Of a stretch of 64,000 nt of DNA, positions 24,610-49,643 are shown one piece after another. Both the position numbers and the translations under genes were made by a program. The number at the start of each line of letters is the position of its first letter. The stretch's first letter is position 1. Location: NCBI GenBank assembly GCA_039817025.1, contig JBCBWQ010000001.1, positions 25,422 through 89,421 of the forward strand. Direction: 5' to 3'. Origin of the DNA: Pseudomonadota bacterium. Its GTDB lineage: Bacteria > Pseudomonadota > Alphaproteobacteria > Caulobacterales > Hyphomonadaceae. The notes under the pieces are model-generated. The model ran no database searches. It saw only the letters and a list, made by a program, of their open reading frames with translations, and had not been told where the DNA came from.

Positions 24610-24680
24610 CAAGAATTAAATTGAATTTGTTCTTGCATACGATGATTTAACAAAATATAAAATCGCTAACGCAAGATTAA
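24610..24680. repeat. fliL/fliF divergent spacer: CAAGAATTAA (24610-24619), TTAA-N7-TAAA (24647-24661), CAAGATTAA (24672-24680)
   Basis: Read directly. The minus-strand reading of 24667-24680 is TTAATCTTGCGTTA, identical to 44887-44900. Confidence 0.6.
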
Positions 24681-24683
24681 GAG

Positions 24684-26363
24684 GTGGATGTGAGCAGCAT
24701 CGTTGAAAACATGAAGGCCCTGGGTGGGGTGAAGCTTTCCATTCTGGCGCTGACCTTTGCGGGCACCCTGGGTGCTGTTCTTTTTGGGCTGGGGGCCGTC
24801 ATGGCACCGACCTATGCCGCGCTTTACAGTGAACTGACGCCCGCCAGCGCCAGCCGCATCGTCACCTCTTTGGAGCAGGCCGGCTTCCGCGTGCGGGTGT
24901 CCCCCGACGGATCGCTGGTCAGCGTCCCGCAGGAAGACATTCCGCGTGCGCGCATGGTCCTGGCCGATTCAGGGTTGCCCACAGACGGCATGCCGGGGTG
25001 GGAGCTGTTTGATGGCGCAAGCGGTATGGGCATGAACACCTTTCTGCAGAAGGTCACGCGCCTGCGCGCGCTTGAAGGCGAACTCGCGCGGTCTATCCAG
25101 ACGATAAACGGAATTGATGCTGCGCGTGTGCACCTCGTGCTGCCCGAGCGCGAGGCGTTTGCGCGCCATCGCCCGGAACCTTCTGCGTCCGTGATCATCT
25201 CTGCCGCGCGTGGCAATGCCATCGGTCGGCGCCAGGGCGCGGCGATCCGTGCGCTCGTCGCCTCGGCCGTGCCGGATCTGGCCCCGCAACGCGTGACGGT
25301 GTTGTCGTCAAGCGGTGAGACAATCCTTGGTGAGGACACAGCCGGGGCAGGGGATGCCACTTTGCATTCCCGCCAGTCCGAAATCGAGGATCGGATCTCT
25401 CGCAAGATCACCGATATTCTGAATGCCCGCGTGGGCGTCGGAAATGCACGGGTCGAAGTGAATGTCGATCTCAGTACAGTGCGCCAGGTCACCCGGTCCG
25501 AGCGGTTTGATCCCGAAGGTCAGGTCGTTCGCTCAACTGAGACGCGTGAGCAAACCTCGCGCGATCAGCAGCCGGGCGGCCCCGAGGTGGGCACCGCTGG
25601 AAATTTGCCACCATTCAATGCAGACGGTGTCGCCGGTGGCGGCGCCGTCGCTGAGTCCCAAGTCACGGGCGAGACGATCAACTATGAAATCGCCAGCACA
25701 CTGACCGAAACGGTGGCTGAACCGGGCGCGATCCAGCGGATCTCGGTCGCGGCGCTGGTGGATGGTGTCTATGAGATCGGCGACGACGAGACCGCGACCT
25801 ACTCCGAGCGCGAGGAGGCGGAGCTTGAACGTCTGGCCCAGCTGATCCGCGCTGCCATCGGCTTTGATGCCAGCCGCGGTGACATGGTGTCGGTCGACAG
25901 CTTACAATTCGTAAACATCTCGCACGAGATCGAGGGGCCTGTGGGCGGGTCGCTCGGGCAGATGGTGCAAGCCTACCTCCCTTCGGTCCTGCGCGGTGTG
26001 TTCGCCTTGGTGCTTGTGGTTGCTGTCCTTGCCTTCGGCGTGCGCCCGGTGGTGCGGATGCTTCTGGAAGCTCCGCAGGCGAACGCTCAGATTAGCGCGG
26101 AAGGTACAGATGCCGTAGCGATCGCCGATGGCGGGGCGCAGGTGCAGCAACTGCCCCAGGGCGGGGCCGCGGCCGGGCAGTCCGGCATGGTCCTTGGACC
26201 TGGCGGGATGGCCGACCAAGACACGGTTCAGGTCGCAGCGATCCAGGGCGGCGTGTCGCGTCAAGCGATTGAAGGCGTGGGCGGTCTTGTTTCCGAACGG
26301 CCCGAGCTTGCAACGCAAGCTGTCCAAAGCTGGCTGAACAAGCCCGCAGCGAGGCACGCGTGA
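24684..26363 (+). CDS. fliF: Flagellar M-ring protein FliF
   Basis: 559 aa with a GTG start; ...LYSELTPASASRIVTSLEQAGF...ARVHLVLPERE... and a C-terminal TM helix. Confidence 0.94.
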   Translation: MDVSSIVENMKALGGVKLSILALTFAGTLGAVLFGLGAVMAPTYAALYSELTPASASRIVTSLEQAGFRVRVSPDGSLVSVPQEDIPRARMVLADSGLPTDGMPGWELFDGASGMGMNTFLQKVTRLRALEGELARSIQTINGIDAARVHLVLPEREAFARHRPEPSASVIISAARGNAIGRRQGAAIRALVASAVPDLAPQRVTVLSSSGETILGEDTAGAGDATLHSRQSEIEDRISRKITDILNARVGVGNARVEVNVDLSTVRQVTRSERFDPEGQVVRSTETREQTSRDQQPGGPEVGTAGNLPPFNADGVAGGGAVAESQVTGETINYEIASTLTETVAEPGAIQRISVAALVDGVYEIGDDETATYSEREEAELERLAQLIRAAIGFDASRGDMVSVDSLQFVNISHEIEGPVGGSLGQMVQAYLPSVLRGVFALVLVVAVLAFGVRPVVRMLLEAPQANAQISAEGTDAVAIADGGAQVQQLPQGGAAAGQSGMVLGPGGMADQDTVQVAAIQGGVSRQAIEGVGGLVSERPELATQAVQSWLNKPAARHA

Positions 26364-27028
26364 TGACCGGGATCTTTGAAAGAAACTTTGACCAAGAGCT
26401 GATGCAGGGCGCCCCGTTGGCTGCTGCATCGCTCGCGGCGGACAGCCTTGCGCTCGAGAAGATGAAAAAGCATCTGCAAGACGAGGCCTATACCAACGGC
26501 TTCCGCGCAGGTGAGGCTGAGGCGCGCCAAGAGGCCGAGGCCAACCTGTCCAACCGTCAGCAGGCCGCCCTCGAAACACTCGTCAACTCCCTCGCGGAAC
26601 TGCGCGATGAGACGGATGCCCATCGCCAAGCCGTCGAGCATCAGCTGCTCGAGTTCGCGCTGAACACCTGCGAGCTGGTTTTGCCCGAAGTCCTGAGCGC
26701 CACGTCGAAACAGCGCGTGGTTGACCAGATCAAGCGCTGCATCACGCTTGCGGGGGGTGTGTCCACCCTGACCGTCACCGTGTCCGAAACCGTCATGAGC
26801 GACCATGGTGCTGAGCTGGCGAATTTGGGCGGGTCAGGCGAGGGGACACGCATCACCGTTCAGGCGGACCCGTCGATGGAGGACGGCGATGCCCGCGTTG
26901 CCTGGCAACACGGATCAATGACCTACAGCCTGCCGCGGATTACCCAAAGCATTCTGGGCGCCGTGCGCCAGGCGCTTGCCGAAGCCCAACCTGAGACAAC
27001 ACAAGACAGGAACGTCACCCATGACTGA
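26360..27028 (+). CDS. fliH: Flagellar assembly protein FliH
   Basis: Position between fliF and fliN, a charged coiled N-half (EAYTNGFRAGEAEARQEAE) and a FliH/YscL-like C-half. Confidence 0.65.
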   Translation: MMTGIFERNFDQELMQGAPLAAASLAADSLALEKMKKHLQDEAYTNGFRAGEAEARQEAEANLSNRQQAALETLVNSLAELRDETDAHRQAVEHQLLEFALNTCELVLPEVLSATSKQRVVDQIKRCITLAGGVSTLTVTVSETVMSDHGAELANLGGSGEGTRITVQADPSMEDGDARVAWQHGSMTYSLPRITQSILGAVRQALAEAQPETTQDRNVTHD

Positions 27029-27407
27029 GACCCCCGAAACGACAGAGACCGCGCCGCCTCCGGCAACGGCCCCTGAGGCACCGCAGCCCACTGATGAGCT
27101 GCAGGATCTTGAAGTCTTGGAAGCGACGGGTGCGGCTCCCACCGCAAGTGGATCCGAGGACGGGAAGCTCGATCCCCTGATGGGCATTGGCATGCAGGTT
27201 CAGGTCGTTCTGGGCCGGTGCCATATGCCGATTGCTGATCTTCTGGCGCTGGGGCGCGGCTCCATCGTCGAGCTTGATCGCGAGATCGGTGGAAGCGTCG
27301 ATGTGCTTGTGAACCAAAAGCTTATCGCCCGCGGCGATCTCACCAAGCTGCCCGATGGCCGTGTGGGTGTCACCCTTACCGAAGTTCTAAAGGAAGCCGC
27401 CGCTTAA
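27021..27407 (+). CDS. fliN: Flagellar motor switch protein FliN
   Basis: C-terminal SpoA domain MQVQVVLGRCHMPIADLLALGRGSIVELDREIGGSVDVLVNQKLIARGDL. The ATG at 27021 overlaps the fliH stop. Confidence 0.9.
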   Translation: MTETPETTETAPPPATAPEAPQPTDELQDLEVLEATGAAPTASGSEDGKLDPLMGIGMQVQVVLGRCHMPIADLLALGRGSIVELDREIGGSVDVLVNQKLIARGDLTKLPDGRVGVTLTEVLKEAAA

Positions 27408-27417
27408 GGCGGACAGA

Positions 27418-28263
27418 TTGTGGGGCAAGACAGTGCGACGTTTTTTTGATTTCAATTGCTGCGGTCCTGCATGGATTTGGGCCGCCGGGATGCTGGCCAT
27501 GTCGGCCACGCCAAGCTCGGCCCAGGATACCGGGACCTTCTTGGGCGACCTCGCGGCCACGGTTAGCGGTGCGCCCGCCGAATCTGACGAAAGTGCGGAA
27601 CTCAGCGGCCGGATCATCCAGCTTCTTGCGTTGACGACGGTGCTCAGTGTGGCGCCCGGCCTGTTGGTCGTTGCCACAAGTTTCACGCGCTTCGTGATCG
27701 TCTTTGCGATCCTGCGTTCGGCGCTGGGCCTCAACCAGACACCGCCCAACATCGTGCTAACCAGCATGGCGATGTTCATGACGTTTTTCGTGATGCAGCC
27801 TGTGTTCCAGGATTCCTGGGAACAGGGCGTTGAGCCGCTGATGGAGAACTCAATCACTGAGGCGCAGGCCATGCCCCGCGTCGCAGAGCCGTTCAAAGAG
27901 TTCATGTTCGTCAACACGCGCCCCAAGGACACCCAGCTCTTCATGGACATTGCCGCCGAAGCCGACGGCGTCGAAGCTGAGCCGGTCCCCGACACTGTCG
28001 AAGAAGTCGGGTGGCGGGCGCTTGTGCCGGCTTTCATGATCTCGGAATTGCGCCGGGCGTTCACCATCGGCTTTCTGATCTTTCTGCCGTTTCTGGCCAT
28101 CGACTTGATCGTCGCGTCGATCCTGATGAGCGCTGGTATGATGATGCTGCCGCCAGTTCTGATCTCACTGCCGTTCAAGATCGTCTTCTTCGTATTGATC
28201 GACGGTTGGTACATGCTGGCCGGAAGCATGATCCAGTCTTACTCAACCGCCACCGGTTTATGA
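27418..28263 (+). CDS. fliP: Flagellar export gate protein FliP
   Basis: Signal peptide then ...TSFTRFVIVFAILRSALGLNQTPPN...FLPFLAIDLIVASILMSAGMMMLPP. The start is uncertain (TTG 27418 or GTG 27433). Confidence 0.94.
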   Translation: MWGKTVRRFFDFNCCGPAWIWAAGMLAMSATPSSAQDTGTFLGDLAATVSGAPAESDESAELSGRIIQLLALTTVLSVAPGLLVVATSFTRFVIVFAILRSALGLNQTPPNIVLTSMAMFMTFFVMQPVFQDSWEQGVEPLMENSITEAQAMPRVAEPFKEFMFVNTRPKDTQLFMDIAAEADGVEAEPVPDTVEEVGWRALVPAFMISELRRAFTIGFLIFLPFLAIDLIVASILMSAGMMMLPPVLISLPFKIVFFVLIDGWYMLAGSMIQSYSTATGL

Positions 28264-28294
28264 GCCTTGTGCCCAAGGGATACGGAATACACGC

Positions 28295-29350: not shown

Positions 29351-29377
29351 TGGCAGAACTGCCGTGTTGGCGTCGGC

Positions 29378-30034
29378 CTAGATCGATTGCGAGGCGAGGA
29401 ATGTGCGCGCCTCGGTGATCGATGCCGTCACCGTCTCCGCCGCTTTCTCGTCATCCCCGGCTTTAATCAAGTCGATCAGGGCACGGTCATGTGCGATGAT
29501 CTGGGCATTTGACGCTTGCACAACCTCGGGCGGGTGATTTGCCAGAATGCTTGTGCGCGCCATGCAGTGAAACGCCTCACCGGCGATCATCGTGTCAGCG
29601 ACAAACGGGTTCTGGGATGCCAGTGCGATTGAGCTGACAAACTCAAAGTGTTTGTTCAAGAGATCGCCTGCCGGCTCGTCCGGCGTAGCGTTGAGAAGCA
29701 CCGCAGCGGGTTGTGTGATTTCTCCCCGCAGATTGCGTGTGGCGCGCTGAACCAGGAACGGAAACAGCCAATTCGCCATGTCAAAGTAATTGCGCAGCCC
29801 GGCCATTGACGCCGACGCCGCGAAAAAACCGCGATTGGGCTCGTTCACCACAAGTTTCTGTCGTTCAAGCAGGATCAAAGCCTCGCGCACAGGGGTGCGT
29901 GACACGCTGTAGCTTGCCGCAAGCGCTTCTTCGCTAATGTGTTGGGAGGGGGAGATCTCGTTTCGGATCAGCATCGCAAGGATATCTGTCTGTATCGACG
30001 TACGATGACTTACCTTTTGCAACGCTGCGGGCAA
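29378..30034 (-). CDS. GntR-family transcriptional regulator (FadR/FCD-type C-domain)
   Basis: ISEEALAASYSVSRTPVREALILLERQKLVV winged HTH, then an all-helical C-terminal domain. Confidence 0.8.
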   Translation of the reverse strand: MPAALQKVSHRTSIQTDILAMLIRNEISPSQHISEEALAASYSVSRTPVREALILLERQKLVVNEPNRGFFAASASMAGLRNYFDMANWLFPFLVQRATRNLRGEITQPAAVLLNATPDEPAGDLLNKHFEFVSSIALASQNPFVADTMIAGEAFHCMARTSILANHPPEVVQASNAQIIAHDRALIDLIKAGDDEKAAETVTASITEARTFLASQSI

Positions 30035-30256
30035 TTCTTCGATCTCCCGATGTTTTCTCTGGCTTTTGTGCCGGAGATAGTTGTTTTTTCTTTCGATCCT
30101 TTGGCCTTGTTAACGAATACGCGCTATCTGAAGTTGATAGTCAACATGCATATAGTAACCAGAGGTTGGTATCCGGTTCTGCTGCGCTGTTCCTGTGCCA
30201 AGTCGGCAACAGGCGCAGTCATTGGCTCGCAACGGTAATTGCGGCGCGTCGCAGTC

Positions 30257-30946
30257 TTATTCGGATCTGCCTGGGTGGATCAGCGTGCACGTCGACGGTG
30301 TGTCGCCCGACGTTGGAATGCGAGCAGTCTCCACAAGCGCGCGCTGGGCCGCCATCTGCAGGAAAAAGTCCAGAACACGGTGCCCAGACCCCACTGCGAT
30401 ACTGCCATCGCGGGCCAGGACCAGCTCGGGCACGGCCGCGAGCGTGCGCCCGGCGCTCAAGGGGCCGTCGAGTTCGATCATGACATCAGACCCCGATCGA
30501 ACGACCCTCCGCACCATGGCTGTGTGGGGCCCGGGCCGCCTGTTCGCGCCATCAGCGCGGCGTGGATCGCCATAAACACCGGTCGCAGGATCCCTTGCGC
30601 CTGCAAAGGCCATCTTGAACGTCGCTTTCCGAAGCGCGACCTGAAGGCGCTCCTTCACCGTAGGACTGACAACTGCCTCGGCCCGAGCGCGGCGCTGAGG
30701 CATGTGTGGGAGGCCGGCCCAACTTGTAGCCAAACGGTCGTAGGCAGTGTTTATGTCGACCAGGCGCTCATTCGCCCCGGGCATCTTGCGGTGAAGCTCA
30801 CCATGCAAGCGCCGGGCAAGCGACCGGTACGCCGTTTTGATGTCATGCAGAGTGCTGGTTTCACAGCAGCCGAGGATCGCAAGATCCCGCGCGATAGTCC
30901 CGTCCATCGAAGCCCCCAAGGCCGAATTGCGGCCGTAATGGGGCAA
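30257..30946 (-). CDS. J-domain-like protein lacking the HPD motif
   Basis: ARDLAILGCCETSTLHDIKTAYRSLARRLHGELHRKMPGANERLVDINTAYDRLA aligns with J-domain helices I-III, with HGE in place of HPD. The likely start is M14 (30907). The opposite-strand ORF at 30239..31042 is Arg-rich and was rejected. Confidence 0.5.
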   Translation of the reverse strand: MPHYGRNSALGASMDGTIARDLAILGCCETSTLHDIKTAYRSLARRLHGELHRKMPGANERLVDINTAYDRLATSWAGLPHMPQRRARAEAVVSPTVKERLQVALRKATFKMAFAGARDPATGVYGDPRRADGANRRPGPHTAMVRRVVRSGSDVMIELDGPLSAGRTLAAVPELVLARDGSIAVGSGHRVLDFFLQMAAQRALVETARIPTSGDTPSTCTLIHPGRSE

Positions 30947-31076
30947 AGGTTGGCAGAATGTGTGGCGCGCTTCGCGAGAATTCTGCGGAGAGGAGAGAAT
31001 TCAGGGGTTTTTGTTGCGAGACCATGGTCAATCTGCGCCTAAAAGGACCACCAGATTGCTGATCTGGAAACGAAGG

Positions 31077-32649: not shown

Positions 32650-32710
32650 ATCTTGTGTATAAGAATAGTTGACATTAATCAAGAATAAATACATGATCTT
32701 ATCAAGAATA
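32650..32710. repeat. motA/orf314 spacer: three direct AAGAATA repeats (32661, 32681, 32704) plus TTGACA (32669-32674)
   Basis: Read directly: TATAAGAATAGTT / ATCAAGAATAAAT / ATCAAGAATAGTA. The spacings are 20 and 23 nt. Confidence 0.65.
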
Positions 32711-32728
32711 GTATGAAGAGCGCCTGAT

Positions 32729-33925: not shown

Positions 33926-34402
33926 ATGACACAGCAAGATAAGAAAAGTGAGATGATCGCCCAGATCGTATCGGCCTTCGCGTCGCGCACCGACGTTACG
34001 GCAGCCGATATAGCGGAATTAACCCTGAAATTGACGCAAGAGCTTGCAGCGGCGCCCGACGATGACAGCGCTGTGATGCCTAGCGCCTATAACGCTGCGA
34101 CCGCGCAGGCCGCACCCAAACCTTCCGTTAACAATACCGAACGCGCCGTCCCGGCAATTGCCATCGAAGACGCGGTGACACCGTCAAAGGTGTATTGCCT
34201 GTGCTGCGGAAAGGGCTTCAAGATGCTCAAGCGGCATCTTGGTGCCGTCCATGGTTTGACTGAGGACGAGTATCGCGAAAAGTTCAATTTACCGAAAGAC
34301 TTCCCGCTGGTCGCGCCAGAGTATTCCGCGATGAAAGCAGAGACGGCCGCGAGGCTTGGTCTTGGCAAGTACGAGCGTGCGAAAGCCGATCCTGTCGACT
34401 GA
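33926..34402 (+). CDS. mucR: MucR/Ros-family zinc-finger transcriptional regulator
   Basis: KVYCLCCGKGFKMLKRHLGAVHGLTEDEYREKFNLPKDFPLVAPEYS is the Ros/MucR signature. Confidence 0.9.
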   Translation: MTQQDKKSEMIAQIVSAFASRTDVTAADIAELTLKLTQELAAAPDDDSAVMPSAYNAATAQAAPKPSVNNTERAVPAIAIEDAVTPSKVYCLCCGKGFKMLKRHLGAVHGLTEDEYREKFNLPKDFPLVAPEYSAMKAETAARLGLGKYERAKADPVD

Positions 34403-35933: not shown

Positions 35934-36545
35934 ATGACGACCAAGACAGATACTCTTTTGCATGCAATTTGGACCTGTGCCGTAAGCCCCGTTCACCCTG
36001 ACGCAAAACACCCGCTCATCGCTCTTGTAGAGACTTTTCTAAAAGTAAAAGCCGTCGTGATCGAAGTCCCCACAGGTCCGCTTTGTGGCCGCGTGTTTCA
36101 GGAAACGACCGAGCTGATGCCCGATCTGCCGATTGCGGATGTCCTGGAGCACGAGCTTGATATCTGCGTTCCCGCTGGTGCGATCATCATCTGCTTATCG
36201 GCCGATGCCCAGGACACAAGGGGCAACTTACGCGCAGCGTCACGGGCATTGGGCACGTTTTGTGCCGAGGTTGTCGTCGACACCGTGCAGCTGGCCGCCA
36301 CCCCGTTTGCCGATGAACGCAAAGAGATGCGTGAACGTGCACAGGCAATAATGTCTCTGGCCCGTCAACTCGCGACTGCGCCCGGCGCCGTGGACGTCCC
36401 AAGTTTCAAGTCCGCACTGGCACGGGGTTTCGGAGAGCTTCTCGGAGGGCCGGCCAATGCGCGCTCCGCCGATGCCACGCTTGCAGCGCTGTACGTTCCT
36501 GAGGCTGACACCACTAATACGCTAGCCGCCGCCCGCAGGGTTTAA
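35934..36545 (+). CDS. Hypothetical protein upstream of the sigma factor gene
   Basis: A 203-aa ORF with coding-like GC3 and no motif recognised. Confidence 0.5.
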   Translation: MTTKTDTLLHAIWTCAVSPVHPDAKHPLIALVETFLKVKAVVIEVPTGPLCGRVFQETTELMPDLPIADVLEHELDICVPAGAIIICLSADAQDTRGNLRAASRALGTFCAEVVVDTVQLAATPFADERKEMRERAQAIMSLARQLATAPGAVDVPSFKSALARGFGELLGGPANARSADATLAALYVPEADTTNTLAAARRV

Positions 36546-36557
36546 TCAAGCATTAAC
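36542..36557 (+). promoter_or_regulatory. Perfect CtrA-type box TTAATCAAGCATTAAC (TTAA-N7-TTAAC)
   Basis: Read directly. It overlaps the stop of the 35934..36545 ORF and lies 68 nt upstream of the sigma gene ATG. Confidence 0.55.
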
Positions 36558-36560
36558 CAC

Positions 36561-36627
36561 TTTATTCTTGAAAATCTCTGCACATCAAGCAGAATAAACA
36601 AGAATAAATAGAAAGTACAAGAATATG
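36561..36627. repeat. Sigma-gene leader: TTTATTCTT (36561-36569, reverse complement of AAGAATAAA), CAGAATAAA (36590), AAGAATAAA (36600-36608), AAGAATATG (36619-36627, includes the start codon)
   Basis: Read directly. Confidence 0.65.
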
Positions 36628-37353
36628 TCCATGTTCTTCGACGCGCTAAGCGGACCAACCCTGGAAGTCAGTGAAGAGCGTGCTGCAATCCACGCCTGGC
36701 AAACACGCGGGGACCGTGCGGCATTGGGTCTACTATTGCGCTCACACGCGCGCCAGGCACGGGCGTATGCCCGCAAGTGGGCCAAGAACCCCACGGATCT
36801 GGATGACTTGATGGCAGAGGGCATGCTGGGGCTCATCGAAGCAGCCTCACGTTTCGATCTGGACCGAGATGTCCGATTCAATACCTACGCCTACTGGTTC
36901 ATTCGTAACCGGATCGCCTCGGCGCAGGTAACGGTATCAAGTGTCGTTGATTTGCCCACGAGGGTATTCATCGATGCGCGCTCTGGCAGGCTAGACCCGA
37001 ACACGAATCCCGATGCGATTGCGGCCATTGAACCGACCCTCGGCGTTGATGATGCCGCGGCGGTGGGCACCCCCGTGATATGCCCCGACAAAACGCCCGA
37101 AGAATTCGTTGCTGAGCAATCCGCACAGGATCAGGTGCGCCGGCTTCTTGATGATGCGCTTTCAAAGCTGGAGCCCATGGAAGAGGCTGTCATCCGTCGC
37201 CGCCTTGACAGCGATGATCATGAAAGCACGACGCCAAATATTCTCCTGAAGGTTTCTGGCCCCCGTCTTCGTGCGATCGAGCGTCGTGCCATCACCCGAC
37301 TGCGCCAGATCCTTCAGCGCAGCGGCTTCAGCCTTGCGATGCTCGACCACTGA
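36625..37353 (+). CDS. Sigma-70 family sigma factor (group 3 / FliA-RpoH-like size)
   Basis: Region 2: DLMAEGMLGLIEAASRFDLDRDVRFNTYAYWFIRNRI. Region 4: EEAVIRRRL...LKVSGPRLRAIERRAITRLRQ. Confidence 0.8.
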   Translation: MSMFFDALSGPTLEVSEERAAIHAWQTRGDRAALGLLLRSHARQARAYARKWAKNPTDLDDLMAEGMLGLIEAASRFDLDRDVRFNTYAYWFIRNRIASAQVTVSSVVDLPTRVFIDARSGRLDPNTNPDAIAAIEPTLGVDDAAAVGTPVICPDKTPEEFVAEQSAQDQVRRLLDDALSKLEPMEEAVIRRRLDSDDHESTTPNILLKVSGPRLRAIERRAITRLRQILQRSGFSLAMLDH

Positions 37354-37362
37354 GGCACACCC

Positions 37363-38799
37363 ATGCAGATGATCCCCATGGCCATCCAAACGCCAGATGC
37401 TGCAGCGGGCCAGGCGCCGAAAGCGGATGCCTCGGCGCAGAACAGCGCAGGTAACGGAGCCGGGTTCCCGGAGTTGTTGAGTCAGACGGCTTCTCAATCA
37501 CCAGCAAAACCCGCTTTGCAAGCGCCTCAATCCAATGGGGCGCCCCTAAAACCAAACGGATTCTTCTCGGACGGCGCATTTGGCACGGCCGAGTTTGCCG
37601 CGTTGTGGGGGGATCTATCCCAGTTGGCGCTCGATGCTCAGAACGCCTTTCAATCGGCGAACAGCCTGAGTGGGCAGGTTGGGGTGATGGAACGTTTCGT
37701 TGCCGATTTTCAAGCGCGCCTAAACCAATATCAACCGATGGCAGGTGGTCTGATTGATGATCTCGCGGGTCAGCTCGGCATTGATCTTTCGCAGCTTCAC
37801 ATCCCACAAAGTGAGGTCGGCGGTGCCGTGTTTGCGGAACCCATGCAGGTCTTTGACAAGGCGATGGAGATGCTGCAGGCGTTTATACCATTGCTCGACC
37901 AGCCTGAAGTTACGGTGCCAACTGCACAACCTGCCAGCCAGAGCGGGAGCGGCGCGAGTGCATCTGCGGCCCTCGCTGCTGTGGCAACGCCGTCTGACGC
38001 ACAGAAACAGGTTACCCCACCCGCCGTGCAGGGTGCTCAACTCGCTGCTACCAACACTGCGGGACCGGACATGCCGATCGCGCAGCCCGCGCCGACCATT
38101 GCGGGGGAAAGTGGCGCGCAACATCCCGCAAATCCTGAATCACTCGCATTGGGACAGACCGAAGACGGGCGGCCGGCTATTGTGACCGACGCGCCCAAGG
38201 CAGCGTTGGCCAACGTCGTGATGGCTGCTGAAGGCGGCAAGCCTTCTGGCCCGGCAGTGGCTGTTTTGCAAAACGCGGTCCCGAATGCACCGCAAGCGCC
38301 CGTGGCGGACGCGGGCCCGTCGCTGGTCACTGATCTTCCCACCGCCAACACGGCACGGACATCTGCGGATCTCGCACCGGCCTTTTCGTTTGCTCGCAAT
38401 GTGGCGGCACAAGTTCGTGGAACCACGTTTGAGGAGGGCAAAACCCGCGTTGAGCTTACGCCGCGCGGGCTGGGCGACATCGAAGTTGAGGTCGCCCGCG
38501 ATGACTCTGGAAAGTTGCGCGTCGTGCTGCGCGCTGAGAATGCCGCCGTGCTAACCGCCTTTCGGAACGACCGCGAGATGATCCTTGGAATGTTGCGGGA
38601 CGGCGGTGTGGCCGTCGACGACGGCGAAGTGGCTTTTGAAAGCTTTGGCGGTCATGGGTCCTACCACGACCGCAGCCAACCCCACGAAATCGAAGCAGTC
38701 GCCGCTGCGCCAATGGTGACAGAAGATGATTTGACGGGTGCGGCCATTGCGCGGCGCGCTGACGTCAAACCATCAGGCGCTTTGGACATCACGACCTGA
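37363..38799 (+). CDS. fliK: Flagellar hook-length control protein FliK
   Basis: P/A/Q-rich N-part. C-terminal Flg_hook-type domain ...KTRVELTPRGLGDIEVEVARDDSGKLRVVLRAENAAVLTAFRNDREMILGML. Confidence 0.85.
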   Translation: MQMIPMAIQTPDAAAGQAPKADASAQNSAGNGAGFPELLSQTASQSPAKPALQAPQSNGAPLKPNGFFSDGAFGTAEFAALWGDLSQLALDAQNAFQSANSLSGQVGVMERFVADFQARLNQYQPMAGGLIDDLAGQLGIDLSQLHIPQSEVGGAVFAEPMQVFDKAMEMLQAFIPLLDQPEVTVPTAQPASQSGSGASASAALAAVATPSDAQKQVTPPAVQGAQLAATNTAGPDMPIAQPAPTIAGESGAQHPANPESLALGQTEDGRPAIVTDAPKAALANVVMAAEGGKPSGPAVAVLQNAVPNAPQAPVADAGPSLVTDLPTANTARTSADLAPAFSFARNVAAQVRGTTFEEGKTRVELTPRGLGDIEVEVARDDSGKLRVVLRAENAAVLTAFRNDREMILGMLRDGGVAVDDGEVAFESFGGHGSYHDRSQPHEIEAVAAAPMVTEDDLTGAAIARRADVKPSGALDITT

Positions 38800-42991: not shown

Positions 42992-43023
42992 CAAGATTAA
43001 ATGTTGCACAACCGAAGAATAAA
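42992..43023. repeat. flgF/orf612 divergent spacer: CAAGATTAA (42992-43000) and AAGAATAAA (43015-43023)
   Basis: Read directly. Confidence 0.6.
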
Positions 43024-43041
43024 TGCAAGTATAAATTTGAA

Positions 43042-44880
43042 ATGACCAAGTACAGTAGAAAATTTTCGGCGCTTATCCTTTATTCTTGTCTTGGGGTGGG
43101 GACCGCACTTGCCGCCGATCCGCCGGAGCCGGTGGGCGGCGAAGGGGTGGCTGCCGACGCAGCAACTGCGCATCAGCCACTTGCCAGCACGCCTCAGTGC
43201 TATGGGGGTCACCGCGCCGCACTTCGCCGTCTCGCCGAGACGCAGGAAGCAGATCGTACACCTACGCACCCAAGCCGGGCGGTTGAGCATCTGGAACTGG
43301 CGGAAGACTACTTCGAAAAGGGGCTGATACTCGAAGCGTGGTCGTTCGCTAAAGACATTTCGGACGAAGCTTTGCCACCGGACCTCGCTACCAAACGGCT
43401 TCAGCTTCTGGCGATGGCAACTGTTCTGGATCCGCGCCCGGGCGCGAAGCCGCAAGTGGCCGATAGCGCGTTTGAGGCCATGCCAAAGCGCGCGGTGTTT
43501 CAGGCGCTGGCCCACGCGCGGGCTGGCCGTGCAGCACAAGCCGCTGCATCGCTGGCCGATCACATTGATGATCTTACGTCGCTTCCCGTTGCGATACGGG
43601 CCCGAGCTTTGCCGTATCTTCTGCTTTCTGCGATCGAAGCCAACGATTGGATAACGAGCCGTGCTTTGGTCGTGGCGTTCCAAGATCACCCGGCACTCGC
43701 GGGCTCGGCCGCGTTTTCCTACCTGTTGGGCCATACGGCGCTGCAAAATGGCGAACGGCTGCGTGCGTTTGACCACTTTACCGCTGCATCTGGCAGCGCC
43801 GACAAGTGGGGCCACCGCGCACGGTTGCAGATGGTCGACCTTGCGGTGGCGCATGGGGGCGTTACCGCGAAAGAGCATGAGCACATGCTGATGCGGATCT
43901 ACGGCGCGTGGCGTCTTGGCCCGGAAGCGAGCGGGACGCTGCTGCGCATCGAAGATCTGCAGATGCAGCAGGGCAACCGCTTGGGGGCGCTTCAGACGCT
44001 GTCAACGTTGATGACAAACCACGCGGGATCGGAGGAAGCGCTTGAGGCGCGGGGGCGGGCCCGCTTGATCCTAGCAGAGTTCTACCGCCGTTTGATCAAG
44101 GACGGTGCAGATCTCAATACGGTGATCAAAAGCCACGAAGAGGTTGCCAGTGACTATCGCTTTTTCGAAGGTTTCGATGTCTACGCCGAGATGTTTGCGG
44201 ATCACCTGTTGTCGGTCGGACTTTCGGGACGCGCGGCGCAGGAATACCGCCTGACCGGGGAGTATCTTGCCGCGGCGAAAAGCCTTGGGCTTTTCGAAAC
44301 CCAATCCGAGCGGACCGACGCGTTGCGCCTGAAAGAGGCCGAAGCGCTTTTGGAAGGGGGGCAGATTGCAAGGGCAAAAGGCATACTGGAGGTGTCGTTA
44401 TCCGTCGACGCGCCACGCATGGTGGCGCGGCTTGCATCGCTGCGTGCGGTGTATTTTGCGCGAACCGGCGAGACACTCAGCGAAGCCGAGGCGACATCTG
44501 CGCGCCCAAGCGGTTTCATCCGTGAGCTCGCAGAGCAGTACTTTGAAGCGGAACAATGGGACTTGGCGCGGTTGGAATACCTCAAACTGGCCCGGGTCAT
44601 GGGCGACGATCTTGCCACGCCGGATGCGGTTAACCTGTTTCTGGCTGCGGAGCGCAGTGGGGATGCAGCCCTCTCAAAGGTGCTCGGCGATCTGGTTGCT
44701 CAGCGGCCCGATTTTGATCAGGCCTCTGTTGCCGCAGGGTTGAACATCGCTGCCGAAACGGACGACAAAATCCGCCGCAAAACACTTGACGCTGTTGTCG
44801 AGCGTGCGGAACGAGTGCTCATTGAAGTGGATGCGCTGGCCAGTGAAGGACCGCCGGATCCCGATGCTCTCCAAGAATAA
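43042..44880 (+). CDS. Large secreted helical-repeat (TPR-like) protein of unknown function
   Basis: 612 aa with signal peptide MTKYSRKFSALILYSCLGVGTALA. It is A/L/E/R-rich with repeated helical hairpin-like segments. It sits between flgF and flgE. Confidence 0.6.
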   Translation: MTKYSRKFSALILYSCLGVGTALAADPPEPVGGEGVAADAATAHQPLASTPQCYGGHRAALRRLAETQEADRTPTHPSRAVEHLELAEDYFEKGLILEAWSFAKDISDEALPPDLATKRLQLLAMATVLDPRPGAKPQVADSAFEAMPKRAVFQALAHARAGRAAQAAASLADHIDDLTSLPVAIRARALPYLLLSAIEANDWITSRALVVAFQDHPALAGSAAFSYLLGHTALQNGERLRAFDHFTAASGSADKWGHRARLQMVDLAVAHGGVTAKEHEHMLMRIYGAWRLGPEASGTLLRIEDLQMQQGNRLGALQTLSTLMTNHAGSEEALEARGRARLILAEFYRRLIKDGADLNTVIKSHEEVASDYRFFEGFDVYAEMFADHLLSVGLSGRAAQEYRLTGEYLAAAKSLGLFETQSERTDALRLKEAEALLEGGQIARAKGILEVSLSVDAPRMVARLASLRAVYFARTGETLSEAEATSARPSGFIRELAEQYFEAEQWDLARLEYLKLARVMGDDLATPDAVNLFLAAERSGDAALSKVLGDLVAQRPDFDQASVAAGLNIAAETDDKIRRKTLDAVVERAERVLIEVDALASEGPPDPDALQE

Positions 44881-44920
44881 ACGGGTTTAATCTTGCGTTA
44901 ACCGCCAACCGCAAGATCAA
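44872..44920. repeat. flgE leader composite: CAAGAATAAA-N5-TTAATCTTG, and the inverted pair TTAATCTTGCG / CGCAAGATCAA
   Basis: Read directly: 44872-44881, 44887-44897 and 44910-44920. Confidence 0.65.
44887..44902 (+). promoter_or_regulatory. Perfect CtrA-type box TTAATCTTGCGTTAAC
   Basis: TTAA-N7-TTAAC read directly, 58 nt upstream of the flgE ATG. Confidence 0.6.
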
Positions 44921-44959
44921 ACATGAACACTCCTAAACCAAAAGAAGGACTTTGCTGAC

Positions 44960-46270: not shown

Positions 46271-46304
46271 TCTCGGCTAACCTGACAGAAGGAGCCCTAG
46301 TGTC

Positions 46305-47717
46305 ATGGGCCTGACAAGTGCATTTGGGCTCAGCCGCAGTGGGCTGAGCACGGTCGAGAAATGGGCCGAAACGACATCGGCCAATATCGCCAACGCCGAC
46401 AAGCCCGGCTATGCGCGCAAATCGGTACTGCGCAGCACCGACGACATGGGCATCGTATCAGTCAGCGGTATCCGGCGCGAGTCAGATGGCGCGATCGACC
46501 GAATGCACCGTATGGAACTGGCGCGCATGGGGCGGCAGGACGCTATCGCCTCAGGGGCGAACCTCTATCTGGGCCAACTCGGTGCGCCGGAAGACCCAAA
46601 CAGTCTGTCCAATCGCATCGCCGATCTGCAAACAGCCATTGTTCAGCTTGCCAACGCCCCAGAACAGATCTCGCGGCAAAACGCAGCCCTCACGGCGGCT
46701 GAAAGCCTAGCGCGCGATCTGAACGCAGCGGATGCGGCGCTGGACGAGGCGGCACTGACGGTTCAAGGGCGGGTCGCGGCCAGCGTCAATGCTGCGAACC
46801 TGGCGATTACGAAAGTGGCCGAACTCAATCAGCGCATAATCGGCGTTGAACCAGGCACCCAACAACATGCGATGCTGACCGACGAATTGAGCATCCAGTT
46901 GGATGCCCTTGCGGAACTGGTCGACACCCGCGCAGTGTTCGACGCAGCCGGGCGTGCATCGGTCTACACCGCCGATGGTAGCCCGCTGGTCGAAGACAAC
47001 GCATACGAGTTGCTGTCGTTTGAACCGGCCACCTCGTCGGTGATACTCGACGGTCGGGATATCACTCCGGGGCGGTCTGGGGCGCGGGGCTTCTCTGAGG
47101 CGCGGCTCGCGGGCGAAATTGAGCTGTTGCGCGATGTTTTTCCACAGGTTCAGCGTCAGCTCGATGAGATGTCGCGCGGCCTGATGGTGGGTTTCGAGAC
47201 GGCAGATGCGACGGTGACTGCGGGCGTAGCGGGGCTATTCACTGATGATGGCGCGGCCTTTGATCCGGCGAACTTCACCGGTCTTGCTGGACGGATCAGC
47301 GTCAACGACGTGGTGCGCCCGATTGCCGGCGGCGATATCTGGCGCCTGCGGGACGGGATTGCCGCAACCACCGAAGGCCCGCCCGCGGACCCAACGCAAC
47401 TTGCCCAGTTCGTTACCATGATGGAAAGCCAGCAAACCTTCGACGGTGCCGCCGGGCTTGGGACAGCCTCGACGCTAAGCGAGTTTGCCGCGGCACTTGG
47501 CGCCGACCAACAACGCGTGCGCACCGATGCCGAGGAACTGCGCGAGACGTTTAAGAACAGCGCCGCCTCCCTTGAGGCGACGCGCAGCAGTCTGTCGGGT
47601 GTCGATGTTGATGATGAGCTTCAGCAATTGATCCTGATTGAACAAAGCTATGCAGCCAACAGCCGTGTGATTACCGTTGTCTCGGAAATGGTCGATACCC
47701 TGCTTGCCGCCGTCTAG
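46305..47717 (+). CDS. flgK: Hook-associated protein 1, FlgK
   Basis: N-terminal ...TTSANIANADKPGYAR..., C-terminal ...GVDVDDELQQLILIEQSYAANSRVI. Confidence 0.9.
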   Translation: MGLTSAFGLSRSGLSTVEKWAETTSANIANADKPGYARKSVLRSTDDMGIVSVSGIRRESDGAIDRMHRMELARMGRQDAIASGANLYLGQLGAPEDPNSLSNRIADLQTAIVQLANAPEQISRQNAALTAAESLARDLNAADAALDEAALTVQGRVAASVNAANLAITKVAELNQRIIGVEPGTQQHAMLTDELSIQLDALAELVDTRAVFDAAGRASVYTADGSPLVEDNAYELLSFEPATSSVILDGRDITPGRSGARGFSEARLAGEIELLRDVFPQVQRQLDEMSRGLMVGFETADATVTAGVAGLFTDDGAAFDPANFTGLAGRISVNDVVRPIAGGDIWRLRDGIAATTEGPPADPTQLAQFVTMMESQQTFDGAAGLGTASTLSEFAAALGADQQRVRTDAEELRETFKNSAASLEATRSSLSGVDVDDELQQLILIEQSYAANSRVITVVSEMVDTLLAAV

Positions 47718-47728
47718 GAGCCTTTCGC

Positions 47729-48808
47729 GTGACCGTGATCCACAATCCATCGACCCTGACCACCGCCAACCTTCGGCGCGAAATCGCTGCCGACATCGAT
47801 GGTCGGCTCAACCAGGCTGCAAATGAGGCGTCAACCGGCAAAAAGGCCGATCCATTCCGCGATCTCGGCACGGGTTCCGTTGAGCTTTTATCGCTTCGGT
47901 CGGGGTCGATCCGGCTGGACGGGTTTATGAAAAGCAATGCGCTTCTAGGCAACCGTATGGACGTAATGGCCAACACGCTCAGCGAGTCCCGCGAGACATT
48001 GCAAGGATTCTTGGAGGCCGCGGTTAGTTTCCGTGAGTCCCAGCAACCCATCGGCACGGTACTTCAGGAAAGCGCGCGCGCCGCCTATGCCCAACTCGCG
48101 ACCCTGTTGAACACGCCATACCAAGGGGCGCAGCTTTTTGCAGGGACCGAGAATACCGGCCCAACGCTGCAAAAATTCAGCGAGACGAACCCAGCCACTG
48201 GCCTGTCGCCAGAAGATATCATCAACGGTATCATCGGAGGCGGGTTCGCTGATGCCGCCGATGCATTGGCAAAGGCCGGCGAGGTCGCAACGGTGTTTGA
48301 CAGTGCGAACACAGCCGCGCCGCTTACGAATTTCGAAGCGACGTTCTTCAATGGAACGCCGCTTGAGGCCGCTCCGGGCGTGCCGTCACCGCGGCAGACG
48401 GCGCTGATCGATAACGGTATGGTGCTGGAGTACGGCGTTCAGGCGAACGATCCGGCGTTTCGCACCGCGCTGCAAGGGTTGGCAATGATTGCCGCGATTG
48501 ATCCGTCGACGATCGCGGATCCGGGCGCCTATGAGGCTTGGGTCGGTGCTGCCATCGACACTGTGGGGCAGGGCCTTCAGCTTCTGGATGCGGTTGAAAC
48601 CCGGCTTGGTGGGGAGCAAAGCCTGCTTGAACAAACCCTGGGCAACCAACAGGTGCGGGCAGACCTCTACGAACAACAGCTTGGTGTTCTGGAGGGCGTC
48701 GATCCCTATGAGGCCGCAAACCGTGTGACGCTACTGTCGACCCAGCTTGAGGCGACCTATGCGATCAACGCGCGGCTGTCGCGGCTGACCTTTCTGAACT
48801 TCATGTAG
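47729..48808 (+). CDS. flgL: Hook-associated protein 3, FlgL
   Basis: Flagellin-fold N and C termini (...EASTGKKADPF..., ...VDPYEAANRVTLLSTQLEATYAINARLSRLTFLNF). GTG start, position after flgK. Confidence 0.85.
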   Translation: MTVIHNPSTLTTANLRREIAADIDGRLNQAANEASTGKKADPFRDLGTGSVELLSLRSGSIRLDGFMKSNALLGNRMDVMANTLSESRETLQGFLEAAVSFRESQQPIGTVLQESARAAYAQLATLLNTPYQGAQLFAGTENTGPTLQKFSETNPATGLSPEDIINGIIGGGFADAADALAKAGEVATVFDSANTAAPLTNFEATFFNGTPLEAAPGVPSPRQTALIDNGMVLEYGVQANDPAFRTALQGLAMIAAIDPSTIADPGAYEAWVGAAIDTVGQGLQLLDAVETRLGGEQSLLEQTLGNQQVRADLYEQQLGVLEGVDPYEAANRVTLLSTQLEATYAINARLSRLTFLNFM

Positions 48809-48825
48809 ATTTAGCGGCGGTGGCT

Positions 48826-49548
48826 CTAACGGGTCGTCGCCTGTTGTCTGTCGAACGCGTCGGCGCTTAGCCGGTAGCCGCGGCCTGGGACCGTTTCGAT
48901 ATAGGCCGAACCTGTCTTGGTCACCGCGTCAAACTTCTTGCGGATTTTGCAGATATAGACGTCCACCACCTTGTCGAATGGCGGCACCTCAGCCACCGCA
49001 TAGACCGAGTCGTAGATTGCGGCTTTCGAGACAACGCGTCCCGCATTCAACGCAAGCTGTTGGAAGATCTCGTGCTCTTTGCTGGACAGGCGCACTCGCG
49101 AGCCGTCGATTTCGGGATCCCGCCCATCAAGGAAAGCGGTGACCGCGCCGACCCGAACCTCTTTCGTGATGTGGCCTTTCGCCCGCCGGATCGTCGCGTT
49201 GATCCGCGCTTTCAACTCAAAGCCCTTGATCGGGATCACCATATCTTGGTCCGCACCCAGATTGATCGACTGGGCCGCCGCCGCAGCGCTTCGGAAGTCG
49301 CGCATCACCACGATGGGATGCGCACATGCCGCAGAGCGAAGGGCATCGATCTGTTCGGCCAGCTGGTCTGTTTCAGCCAGCAGGAAGCCTGCTGCCATCG
49401 TGTCTTCGCGTGTCAAGAGCGACAAGTCGCGTCTGAAGAACGCCTCGTCGATAGAAACCAGTGCGAAGCCAGCGTTGGCAAGTTCGGTGCAAAGCCCCGC
49501 CATCCGTTCGCTACGGGGCTCGTGAACATAAAGCTGCATGAATACCAC
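48826..49548 (-). CDS. OmpR-family winged-helix regulator with a degenerate receiver domain (FtcR-like orphan)
   Basis: C-terminal ...LSSKEHEIFQQLALNAGRVVSKAAIYDSVY...VDVYICKIRKKF...YIETVPGRGYRL is an OmpR/PhoB DNA-binding domain. The N-terminal receiver fold lacks the acidic pocket (LYVHEPR instead of ..VDDD..), and the phospho-Asp position reads FLLAETD. Confidence 0.8.
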   Translation of the reverse strand: MVFMQLYVHEPRSERMAGLCTELANAGFALVSIDEAFFRRDLSLLTREDTMAAGFLLAETDQLAEQIDALRSAACAHPIVVMRDFRSAAAAAQSINLGADQDMVIPIKGFELKARINATIRRAKGHITKEVRVGAVTAFLDGRDPEIDGSRVRLSSKEHEIFQQLALNAGRVVSKAAIYDSVYAVAEVPPFDKVVDVYICKIRKKFDAVTKTGSAYIETVPGRGYRLSADAFDRQQATTR

Positions 49549-49601
49549 GCGTCCTTGCTACACCCCCTATATAAGGATAGATCATGACTGAAGATCTATA
49601 T

Positions 49602-49643
49602 CAAGAATAAAATAATTTTAATCTTGACATTGTGAAGAATAAA
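49602..49643. repeat. ftcR-like/flgI divergent spacer: CAAGAATAAA-N6-TTAATCTTG, TTGACA, AAGAATAAA
   Basis: Read directly: 49602-49611, 49618-49626, 49624-49629 and 49635-49643. Confidence 0.65.

Follow-up and report, generated by a model that had tools for sequence, protein, structure and literature searches.

Introduction

Repeated CAAG motifs mark class II flagellar promoters of the Rhizobiaceae, where they are recognized by the regulator Rem. In Agrobacterium tumefaciens, purified Rem shifts promoter DNA carrying CAAGWCTCRCG-CAAGNYYNNAC upstream of mapped class II starts, and these repeats are said to resemble the Rem-bound repeats of Sinorhizobium meliloti (bioRxiv 10.1101/2021.06.24.449765). 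The S. meliloti footprints are those of Rotter et al. 2006 as cited in that preprint. In Rhizobiaceae class II promoters, the CAAG-N7-CAAG bound by Rem overlaps the -35 element. For S. meliloti, Rem has been reported to act on class II genes and CtrA on flagellin. Here we describe a related 10-bp box with a CAAG core that forms arrays before the early operons of a fla2-type flagellar gene cluster, contained in a 64-kb stretch of contig JBCBWQ010000001.1 (hereafter the window).

Clusters of the fla2 type (defined in PMC12363192) are spread horizontally and often plasmid-borne, and their regulation is an open question (PMC12363192; PMC12843797). On plasmids they move among roseobacters and can alone confer motility. 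CtrA controls flagellar genes throughout the Rhodobacterales, and the core CtrA regulon of roseobacters reportedly consists of flagella and cyclic di-GMP (c-di-GMP) genes (PMC12363192). Two further regulators are relevant here. For the Brucella flagellar master regulator FtcR, chromatin immunoprecipitation sequencing (ChIP-seq) yielded the 8-mer TGTGGGCA (PMC9456535). MucR is a broad silencer of AT-rich DNA that is overcome by specific activators, as with MucR and CuxR in Sinorhizobium (PMC12560781).

Results

The unit that recurs in the window is the 10-mer CAAGAATAAA, which the first-pass annotation of this DNA had reported as a 9-mer, AAGAATAAA, with a one-base relative, CAAGATTAA. For exact AAGAATAAA, dinucleotide-preserving shuffles of the window predict 0.13 copies (maximum 2 in 100), and 8 are present; for CAAGATTAA, 4 are present where 0.27 are expected. 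All seven AAGAATAAA copies listed in that annotation lie where it placed them, and an eighth, on the minus strand at 43079-43087, had been overlooked; the four CAAGATTAA copies were right in position and strand, and each near-copy is present as written. At up to one mismatch to CAAGAATAAA, the whole window holds 16 sites, all inside or adjoining seven flagellar promoter spacers (Table 1) and none away from them. These are the operon-initial spacers fliI/flgB, fliL/fliF, motA/orf314, orf203 to the sigma gene, flgF/orf612, orf612 to flgE, and regulator/flgI. The early operons that start at boxes begin with fliI, flgB, fliL, fliF, motA, orf314, the sigma gene, flgF, orf612, flgI and the regulator gene.

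No other DNA of the window is as AT-rich as the box-bearing spacers (28-43% GC), and the annotation had suspected an excess beyond what AT-richness would give. This proved correct: when the seven spacers were shuffled alone (729 bp, dinucleotide-preserving), 15 sites were observed against 0.18 expected (maximum 3 in 2000), and the remaining spacers within and outside the cluster (44-67% GC, ~6 kb in total) contained no site at up to one mismatch. Chance and AT-richness are ruled out by these within-spacer shuffles, together with those of the orthologous spacers described below, and also by AT-rich spacers that lack boxes.

By gene content and order, the window holds a fla2-type flagellar gene cluster of Rhodobacterales. 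Pfam annotation revealed a complete flagellar gene cluster from ~14.3 to 56 kb, ordered fliL|fliF-H-N-P-G ... motA|orf314, MucR, motB, orf203, sigma, fliK, flgD ... flgH-A-G-F|orf612, flgE-K-L, regulator|flgI-J-N, fliC, flaF, flbT and DUF1217. This order matches the reference fla2 cluster L081, on plasmid pMaD5 of Marinovum algicola DG898 (MALG_04521-04566; regulators 43% identical), and is common also to plasmid-borne clusters of Roseivivax, Alloyangia and Sulfitobacter.

Table 1. Boxes, CtrA-type boxes and cluster-encoded DNA-binding proteins, in window coordinates (last row: coordinates on the Azospirillum plasmid). Single numbers are start positions; "yes" marks the 16 sites with up to one mismatch to CAAGAATAAA.
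Location	Element	Position (strand)	Up to one mismatch	Remark
fliI/flgB divergent spacer, 15630..15686	CATGAATAAA	15630-15639 (+)	yes	over fliI start codon
fliI/flgB divergent spacer	CAAGATTTAA	15677-15686 (-)		
fliL/fliF divergent spacer, 24598..24681	CAAGGATAAA	24598 (+)	yes	
fliL/fliF divergent spacer	CAAGAATTAA	24610 (+)	yes	
fliL/fliF divergent spacer	CAAGAACAAA	24626-24635 (-)	yes	
fliL/fliF divergent spacer	CAAGATTAAG	24672 (+)		weak; over fliF Shine-Dalgarno
motA/orf314 spacer, 32660..32712	TAAGAATAGT	32660 (+)		
motA/orf314 spacer	CAAGAATAAA	32680 (+)	yes	20 bp from preceding box
motA/orf314 spacer	CAAGAATAGT	32703 (+)		23 bp from preceding box
Sigma-gene upstream spacer, 36561..36627	CAAGAATAAA	36561-36570 (-)	yes	
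Sigma-gene upstream spacer	GCAGAATAAA	36589 (+)		
Sigma-gene upstream spacer	CAAGAATAAA	36599 (+)	yes	
Sigma-gene upstream spacer	CAAGAATATG	36618 (+)		over ATG
flgF/orf612 divergent spacer, 42992..43035	CAAGATTAAA	42992 (+)	yes	
flgF/orf612 divergent spacer	GAAGAATAAA	43014 (+)	yes	22 bp from preceding box
flgF/orf612 divergent spacer	CAAGTATAAA	43026 (+)	yes	12 bp from preceding box
5' end of open reading frame 43042..44880	CAAGAATAAA	43079..43088 (-)	yes	isolated exact copy, 38 nt within the frame
flgE upstream region, 44872..44921	CAAGAATAAA	44872 (+)	yes	over orf612 stop
flgE upstream region	CAAGATTAAA	44886-44895 (-)	yes	inverted arm; 5' half of CtrA box
flgE upstream region	CAAGATCAAA	44912 (+)		
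Regulator/flgI divergent spacer, 49572..49643	TAAGGATAGA	49572 (+)		
Regulator/flgI divergent spacer	CAAGAATAAA	49602 (+)	yes	
Regulator/flgI divergent spacer	CAAGATTAAA	49617-49626 (-)	yes	
Regulator/flgI divergent spacer	GAAGAATAAA	49634 (+)	yes	
Upstream of sigma gene	CtrA-type box TTAATCAAGCATTAA	36542..36556 (+)		apart from CAAG boxes
Upstream of flgE	CtrA-type box TTAATCTTGCGTTAA	44887..44901 (+)		kept in most of 64 orthologous spacers
Upstream of fliC	CtrA-type box TTAACCCAGGCTTAA	51545..51559 (+)		kept in most of ~75 loci
MucR/Ros-family zinc-finger gene	Pfam ROS_MUCR 8e-34	33926-34402 (+)		cluster-encoded; kept in L081, L083, L084
Sigma-70-family sigma factor gene	Pfam Sigma70_r2	36625-37353 (+)		cluster-encoded; kept in fla2 clusters L081-L084
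OmpR/PhoB-type winged-helix regulator gene		48826..49539 (-)		candidate binder, CtrA/Rem-like orphan
Azospirillum spacers (L085)	TTWAAA-N5/6-TTAAAC	3866-4032, 12943-13148, 20628-20841, 29906-30031, 37648-37975		

We scanned one genome per species and obtained 80 Rhodobacterales loci around homologues of the cluster's winged-helix regulator (44-79% identity). Window proteins were mapped onto these loci and the orthologous spacers extracted (239 spacers, 30.8 kb, 41% GC). Refinement of a position weight matrix at a 9-bit threshold drifted to generic AT-rich sequence (from 551 to 1084 sites) and was replaced by a fixed 8-position consensus; densities count sites that agree with CAAGNATANA at 7 or more of its 8 defined positions. 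Boxes with up to one mismatch to CAAGAATAAA occupy the same relative positions in most of the 80 loci, even in genomes of 65-71% GC. The consensus CAAG[AGT]AT[AT][AG]A was observed 117 times against 1.4 expected and bare CAAG 662 times against 251, while control words of the same composition stayed at expectation in the same 239 spacers. De novo, the 8-mers most enriched in spacers over coding DNA were CAAGTATA (188-fold), AGAATAAA, AAGTATAA and AAGATTAA.

Site densities per kb reached 20 in flgB/fliI, 17 in regulator/flgI and 10 in orf612/flgF spacers; they were 5.6 upstream of flgE, 0.28 in coding DNA, and 0-0.9 upstream of fliC and in convergent and intra-operon gaps, the fliC upstream regions themselves having about 0-0.5. 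At least one site was present in every regulator/flgI spacer (80/80, mean 2.7 per spacer), in all flgB/fliI (27/27) and fliL/fliF spacers (7/7), and in 55 of 61 orf612/flgF spacers. In the whole clusters of Roseivivax and Alloyangia, 17/19 and 12/16 sites, respectively, fell inside ~2 kb of spacers, including motA/orf314 and the region upstream of the sigma gene. The AT-rich tail of the box is largely gone from the fla2 spacers of Thioclava and Histidinibacterium, in which repeated CAAG/CTTG cores remain, regularly spaced in Histidinibacterium (N6, 10-bp period) and irregularly in Thioclava (N3, N9). As the cores outlast the tail in these genera, the essential feature is the CAAG core on one helical face. 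We saw no box arrays in the outgroup clusters of Azospirillum, Pseudoroseomonas and the fla3-type Octadecabacter. Enrichment at flagellar spacers and conserved position in orthologous clusters, the test set beforehand in the first-pass annotation, were thus both found and, judged by this distribution, the box is a genuine cis-regulatory element that is specific to flagellar-operon spacers and position-conserved in orthologous clusters.

Each 10-bp box reads CAAG-A/T/G-AT-A/T-A/G-A, a CAAG core followed by an AT-rich tail, and two to four units lie in a spacer in either orientation (up to 4-5 across fla2 spacers). Distances between units are strongly periodic: direct pairs cluster at 8-12, 19-23, 30-34, 41-46 and 52-55 bp, convergent pairs at 13-15, 26, 35-36 and 45 bp, and divergent pairs at 17-18, 28-29 and 37-38 bp. 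The core-to-core period is 10.5-10.8 bp whatever the orientation (173 de-duplicated pair contexts; Rayleigh z ~44), and bare CAAG/CTTG tetramers show an equal period (R = 0.41 versus ≤0.12 under random placement). The phased repeats noticed at one locus in the first-pass annotation therefore extend, with palindromic pairs, across the orthologous spacers. Alignment of 426 sites from -44 to +55 revealed no conserved position beyond the 10-mer (≤0.11 bit each). This pattern fits arrays of transcription-factor sites, not a sigma promoter half or an RNA element.

Where the boxes lie relative to promoters is less uniform. Distances from box to start codon are broad across loci, and with start codons uncertain they do not discriminate an activator site from a -10 element. 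Boxes overlap promoter-like hexamers in several registers, either inside the spacer of a TTGACA-N16/17-hexamer pair or by providing the TTG of a -35 element. A simple sigma-70 scan gave no more hits than shuffled sequence, so single hits are only suggestive; with the registers differing as well, sequence alone cannot separate activation from repression.

Alignment with the three closest relatives (L001-L003) showed the boxes as conserved islands amid diverged spacers. At fliI, the second box of the spacer coincides in part with a minus-strand, sigma-70-like TTGCAA-16-TATCAT. The fliL/fliF boxes are also found in the M. algicola, Roseivivax and Alloyangia clusters; by eye, a candidate fliF promoter is TTGCAT (24633-24638), N17, TATAAA (24656-24661). 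Boxes in the motA/orf314 spacer and upstream of the sigma gene recur in L081, L083 and L084, and at orf314 a TTGACA-17-CATGAT (32669-32697) encloses the central box of its spacer. All three flgF/orf612 boxes are kept in L001-L003 although the flanks have diverged. In the regulator/flgI spacer, the block TTTAATCTTGACA-N4-CAAGAATAAA-N2-TAGTGT is kept in the same relatives, and at flgI a TTGACA-16-TAGTTT (49624-49651), found by eye, is conserved in relatives. The copy within orf612 at 43079 is absent at that place in L001-L003 and is probably a chance or lineage-specific occurrence.

Two facing pairs of half-sites had been pointed out earlier, at 44872-44895 and 49602-49626. Both are real, and a third lies at 24610-24635; the copy at 44873-44881 overlaps the stop codon of 43042..44880, as had been stated. 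The 44886-44895 arm makes more sense as the 5' half of a conserved CtrA box. It reads TTTAATTTTG in L001 and L002, so the conserved element before flgE is the CtrA box and not the CTTG end.

Box CAAGTATAAAT (43026-43035) ends 6 nt before the ATG of orf612, a conserved 612-aa hypothetical gene without a Shine-Dalgarno sequence. The TATAAA at 43030-43035 lies at the right distance for a leaderless orf612 mRNA starting at the A of the ATG, and the box/TATAAA/ATG arrangement (43026-43044) is kept in L001-L003.

CtrA-type boxes form a class of their own in the window, as the first-pass annotation had supposed when it set the motif apart from the CtrA consensus: TTAA-N7-TTAA occurs 4 times against 0.18 expected. 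A TTAAC-N6-WTAA box stands at the corresponding place before the sigma gene in L081-L084, and the flgE and fliC CtrA boxes are followed by CTATAT-like hexamers kept across loci. The fliC upstream region, with its CtrA-type box at 51545, contains no CAAG boxes. From this distribution of motifs there are two promoter classes, with CAAG boxes at the early operons and the regulator and CtrA-type boxes at flgE, flagellin and the sigma gene.

Two observations adjoin this second class. A perfect CtrA-type box, TTAACCCGCCGTTAA (58129-58143), stands outside the flagellar cluster ~50 nt before a PAS-GGDEF-EAL gene (58192..60804); its place before a c-di-GMP turnover gene agrees with the reported roseobacter core CtrA regulon. 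The 5' untranslated region of fliC carries a hairpin, CCUGUC-AGAA-GACGGG (51601-51616), between the CtrA-box promoter and the start codon, conserved in ~70 loci. In other genera its AGAA(A) loop is kept with compensatory stems (CAGUC/GACUG, CGUC/GACG, GGA/UCC); it is present in the minimum-free-energy fold (z = -2.5) and has no Rfam match. Because flaF and flbT lie just downstream, the hairpin is probably the target of FlbT/FlaF.

The most plausible reader of the CAAG boxes is the OmpR/PhoB-type regulator encoded beside them, which the earlier annotation had listed, as an FtcR-like winged-helix protein, among several candidates. Its longest open reading frame starts at 49548 (MVFMQLYV...), and the start in all 21 homologues corresponds to the second Met (MQLYV, ATG 49539), probably the true start. 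Relatives are all from Rhodobacterales. The protein matches Pfam Trans_reg_C alone, with no Response_reg match, and its best NCBIfam match is CtrA at 119 bits versus a 350-bit cut-off. The phospho-acceptor Asp is missing (Ala, Gly or Ser at that position in 22 homologues) and the conserved Lys is lost too. The AlphaFold model (predicted local distance difference test (pLDDT) 86) folds as a (beta-alpha)5 receiver-like domain plus a winged helix-turn-helix, with full-length OmpR-family regulators as best Foldseek matches.

We give an even chance to the reading that this aspartate-less OmpR/CtrA-like regulator binds the boxes. Its DNA-binding helix is invariant in the 22 homologues, in line with the invariant CAAG core, and its own promoter carries boxes in all 80 loci. 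Like rem, its gene adjoins flgE-K-L, and the protein shares with Rem the signatures DGRDPE and RVSK..IY..YG and 31% identity over 145 aa (S. meliloti Rem). Several points weigh against this assignment. The regulator is nearer to CtrA than to Rem (hhalign 199 vs 145; BLASTP 108 vs 67 bits), and in both recognition helix and wing (DKVIDVYICKIRKK ... YIETVxGRGY) it nearly matches CtrA (KIIDVFICKLRKK ... YIETVWGRGY), whereas the Rem helix, ENVVESHISKLRKK, is different; with a CtrA-like helix it should, by a simple recognition code, read TTAA-type boxes. The lateral-flagellar regulator of Azospirillum has an identical helix (DKVIDVYICKLRKK) in a cluster nearly without CAAG boxes. Many arrays are inverted, whereas Rem and PhoB sites are strictly tandem, and the overlap with hexamers in several registers suits a repressor as well as an activator. 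The reported Brucella FtcR motif is unrelated to the CAAG box, and a literature search for protein-DNA binding experiments on fla2 clusters found none.

The Azospirillum cluster (Azospirillum sp. B510 plasmid pAB510e, L085) has neither a sigma gene nor a MucR gene. Its promoters have in common TTWAAA-N5/6-TTAAAC boxes, which are CtrA-like with an 11-12 bp period.

Other regulators in or near such clusters were considered as binders. The GntR protein (29378-30034), also named in the first-pass annotation, is unlikely and was rejected, its gene being missing at that place in the reference fla2 clusters. Between fliG and motA (window 29378-31042), the window has this GntR/FCD gene (minus strand) and an unannotated 267-aa open reading frame, neither at this position in L081 or L084; both are probably accessory insertions. 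In Roseivivax, a GntR gene lies at the cluster border. A second atypical winged-helix regulator (MALG_04553) lies between mucR and orf314 at 35957-36619 in M. algicola (L081) and 36318-36983 in Alloyangia (L084), with the helix RRIDVHIARIRQKL and a deleted beta-hairpin region; it was rejected as box binder, being absent from the window and from Roseivivax.

The cluster sigma factor has RpoH-type best NCBIfam matches, far under the family cut-offs. The conserved hypothetical gene orf203 (35934-36545) precedes it in all fla2 clusters and could encode its anti-sigma factor.

Discussion

We hypothesize that several molecules of one sequence-specific DNA-binding protein would sit on each array and so switch the early operons as a set. 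By analogy with the OmpR/PhoB family, the recognition helix would recognize CAAG in the major groove and the wing the AT-rich tail; by analogy with Rem, the regulator would activate transcription and regulate its own gene. Activation might proceed by countering silencing of the 28-43% GC spacers by the MucR paralogue. MucR is placed here as a possible antagonist and not as the box reader because it is a broad silencer of AT-rich DNA overcome by specific activators. Through their CtrA boxes, flgE, flagellin and the sigma gene would be connected to the CtrA phosphorelay of the host. By analogy with Rem we favour activation over repression.

The regularities that make a DNA-binding protein attractive also bear on readings in which the box is something else. 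An action at the RNA level in 5' leaders, the alternative raised in the first-pass annotation, would suit the copies at 36599, 43014 and 43026, which sit 6-19 nt from start codons that have no Shine-Dalgarno sequence, and the copy at 24672 over that of fliF. It is extremely improbable: both strands carry boxes at similar frequency, the divergent spacers hold palindromes, the phasing is that of the DNA helix, many boxes lie upstream of promoter-like hexamers and of any plausible transcription start, and the Rfam scan of the window matched no family. The boxes might instead be degenerate CtrA sites read by the host CtrA, with CAAG...TAAA standing for TTAA-N7-TTAA, an idea to which the control of Rhodobacterales flagellar genes by CtrA lends itself. 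TTAA does occur within CAAGATTAAA, TTAATCAAGAATAAA at 32676 can be read as TTAA-N7-TAAA, and two true CtrA boxes have CAAG or CTTG inside their N7 spacer. Most boxes, though, have neither TTAA nor a conserved half-site 11 bp off, their information sits in CAAG, and canonical CtrA boxes are a separate conserved class at flgE, fliC and the sigma gene, all of which makes this reading very improbable. More substantial is the possibility that the box is a core promoter element of the cluster's sigma factor, either a -35 in the CTTG orientation (TTTATT-CTTG-A) or a -10 (c-AAGnAT-aa). The CtrA-like regulator, or CtrA, would then activate the sigma gene via the TTAA box at 36542, and the sigma factor would transcribe all box-bearing operons. 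The sigma gene is kept in fla2 clusters behind a conserved TTAA-type box, its product is closest to RpoH-type families, and -35 elements of the sigma-32 type have the sequence CTTGAA. At several boxes the CTTG end falls on a -35-like hexamer that stands 16-18 bp from a -10-like one, one clade has a conserved TACTTGAA-N17/18-CTGTTTTACT before flgI, and AAGNAT retains A2 and T6 of a -10 hexamer. The CtrA-like recognition helix of the regulator points the same way, as does Azospirillum, which shares that helix and lacks both sigma gene and CAAG boxes. A promoter element should, however, occur as one oriented copy per promoter, and spacers hold two to four boxes in both orientations, phased with the helix; none of the 426 sites' flanks revealed a partner element at fixed distance on either side, and the bases beside CTTG on the promoter side are not conserved. 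Plain CAAG/CTTG arrays persist in Histidinibacterium (regular 10-bp) and Thioclava (irregular), and the Rhizobiaceae have Rem-bound CAAG repeats without a cluster sigma factor. We consider the sigma-element reading unlikely.

The sign of regulation is a separate question, for the arrays could be repressor or silencer operators that shut the cluster by occupying core promoters, bound by the MucR/Ros paralogue or by the regulator acting negatively. The MucR paralogue is kept in fla2 clusters, and MucR coats AT-rich promoters (-35/-10 and 5' untranslated regions) and silences horizontally acquired genes (PMC12560781). The box spacers are the most AT-rich of the window, boxes lie within or across promoter-like hexamers and start codons, and phased arrays would suit an oligomerizing protein. 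Yet the MucR literature (PMC12560781) gives no GC-containing consensus like CAAG, the cluster has other AT-rich spacers without boxes, Thioclava and Histidinibacterium keep the CAAG core and not the AT-rich tail, and the activator Rem binds the same core in Rhizobiaceae. This reading is accordingly quite unlikely, and binding by the OmpR/CtrA-like regulator, by analogy with Rem as an activator, is the one we favour.

A bolder extension of the regulator reading would make the cluster a portable cassette, in which a CtrA paralogue without the aspartate, a sigma factor and a MucR silencer private to the cluster, and the CAAG arrays would form a self-contained set that makes a mobile flagellum portable between hosts. 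The paralogue would retain the CtrA helix but read CAAG instead of TAAC, in phase-locked, orientation-free arrays, displacing the cluster's MucR from the AT-rich promoters, and the tie to the cell cycle of the host would run through the CtrA boxes on flgE, fliC and the sigma gene. We regard this combination as doubtful. If true, it would be a new case of re-wired specificity in the CtrA family and of a silencer/counter-silencer pair that travels together with its target genes.

With the box arrays, a mobile flagellar cluster has its first regulatory map. The map makes testable how a flagellum, once transplanted, becomes wired into its new host, which of the three cluster-encoded DNA-binding proteins reads the boxes, and whether the Rem/CAAG logic of Rhizobiaceae is older and more widespread than thought. 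It also raises a sharp question on recognition specificity within the CtrA family, and the box can serve as a marker to predict further regulon members in fla2-carrying genomes.

Comparison with known systems

The first-pass annotation did not recognize the motif as a described operator, and our searches of the literature for such a CAAG box, whether in Rhodobacterales or in fla2 clusters, found none; a described relative does exist in the Rem box (CAAG-N7-CAAG) at class II promoters of Agrobacterium and Sinorhizobium. In S. meliloti (L086), fliF and flgB are preceded by CAAG-N6/7-CAAG-N8-CCTAG and flgE by a looser CAAG-N11-CAAG followed by CTAG. A Phyllobacterium plasmid cluster has CAAG-N7-CAAG before flgB and motA, and the flgI promoter of the window and three relatives reads CAAG-N8-TAG, like S. 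meliloti. The L086 sequence, PLSDB CP090106.1, is labelled 'S. meliloti Ak57 plasmid pSymB' at 3.7 Mb and appears to be a mislabelled chromosome; visN, visR and rem are part of the chromosomal che/fla/mot regulon found on it.

Sites of other regulators share single features with the fla2 box. Among the tandem sites of the OmpR family, the Pho box has a unit structure established in the PhoB-DNA literature. Sites for PhoB, OmpR, PhoP, KdpE and PmrA resemble the fla2 box in their unit of ~10-11 bp, with a short core followed by an AT-rich stretch, in the placing of several units on one helical face near the -35 element and in the fold of the regulator; unlike them, the fla2 regulator has no phosphorylation site and its boxes are free in orientation, not strictly head-to-tail. 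CtrA boxes (TTAA-N7-TTAA) have a comparable 11-bp tandem logic and control Rhodobacterales flagellar genes, the helix of the fla2 regulator is nearly that of CtrA, and true CtrA boxes lie within the same cluster. However, a CAAG box need not contain TTAA and lacks a conserved second half-site, and the two motif classes sit at different promoters. Brucella FtcR is likewise an orphan OmpR-type flagellar regulator, encoded in a flagellar locus and autoregulated, but its reported 8-mer bears no resemblance to the CAAG box (a comparison of motifs). MucR/Ros targets are long stretches of AT-rich DNA bound with little sequence specificity; the fla2 spacers are AT-rich, and what they conserve includes a CAAG core that persists without the AT-rich tail. 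Silencing by H-NS is countered by PhoP and SsrB, and counter-silencing systems of this kind share with fla2 the AT-rich promoters on mobile DNA, a MucR gene at hand and flexible site position and orientation; counter-silencing of MucR in fla2 clusters is purely inferential.

The Rem system offers the fullest correspondence. Both boxes have a CAAG core and a 10-11 bp period and occur at early (class II) flagellar operons and not at flagellin promoters, both regulators are orphan OmpR-type proteins without the phospho-acceptor Asp encoded beside flgE-K-L, and S. meliloti has the same reported division of labour, with Rem at class II genes and CtrA at flagellin. The fla2 box differs in its AT-rich tail, itself conserved (AATAAA), and in units that may be inverted or tandem and number up to 4-5 in a spacer; the fla2 regulator is only ~31% identical to Rem, nearer to CtrA and equipped with another recognition helix, and the fla2 cluster has in addition a sigma factor and a MucR of its own. 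On these sequence comparisons the box is not categorically new and fits best as a variant Rem-type CAAG operator, AT-rich and free in orientation.

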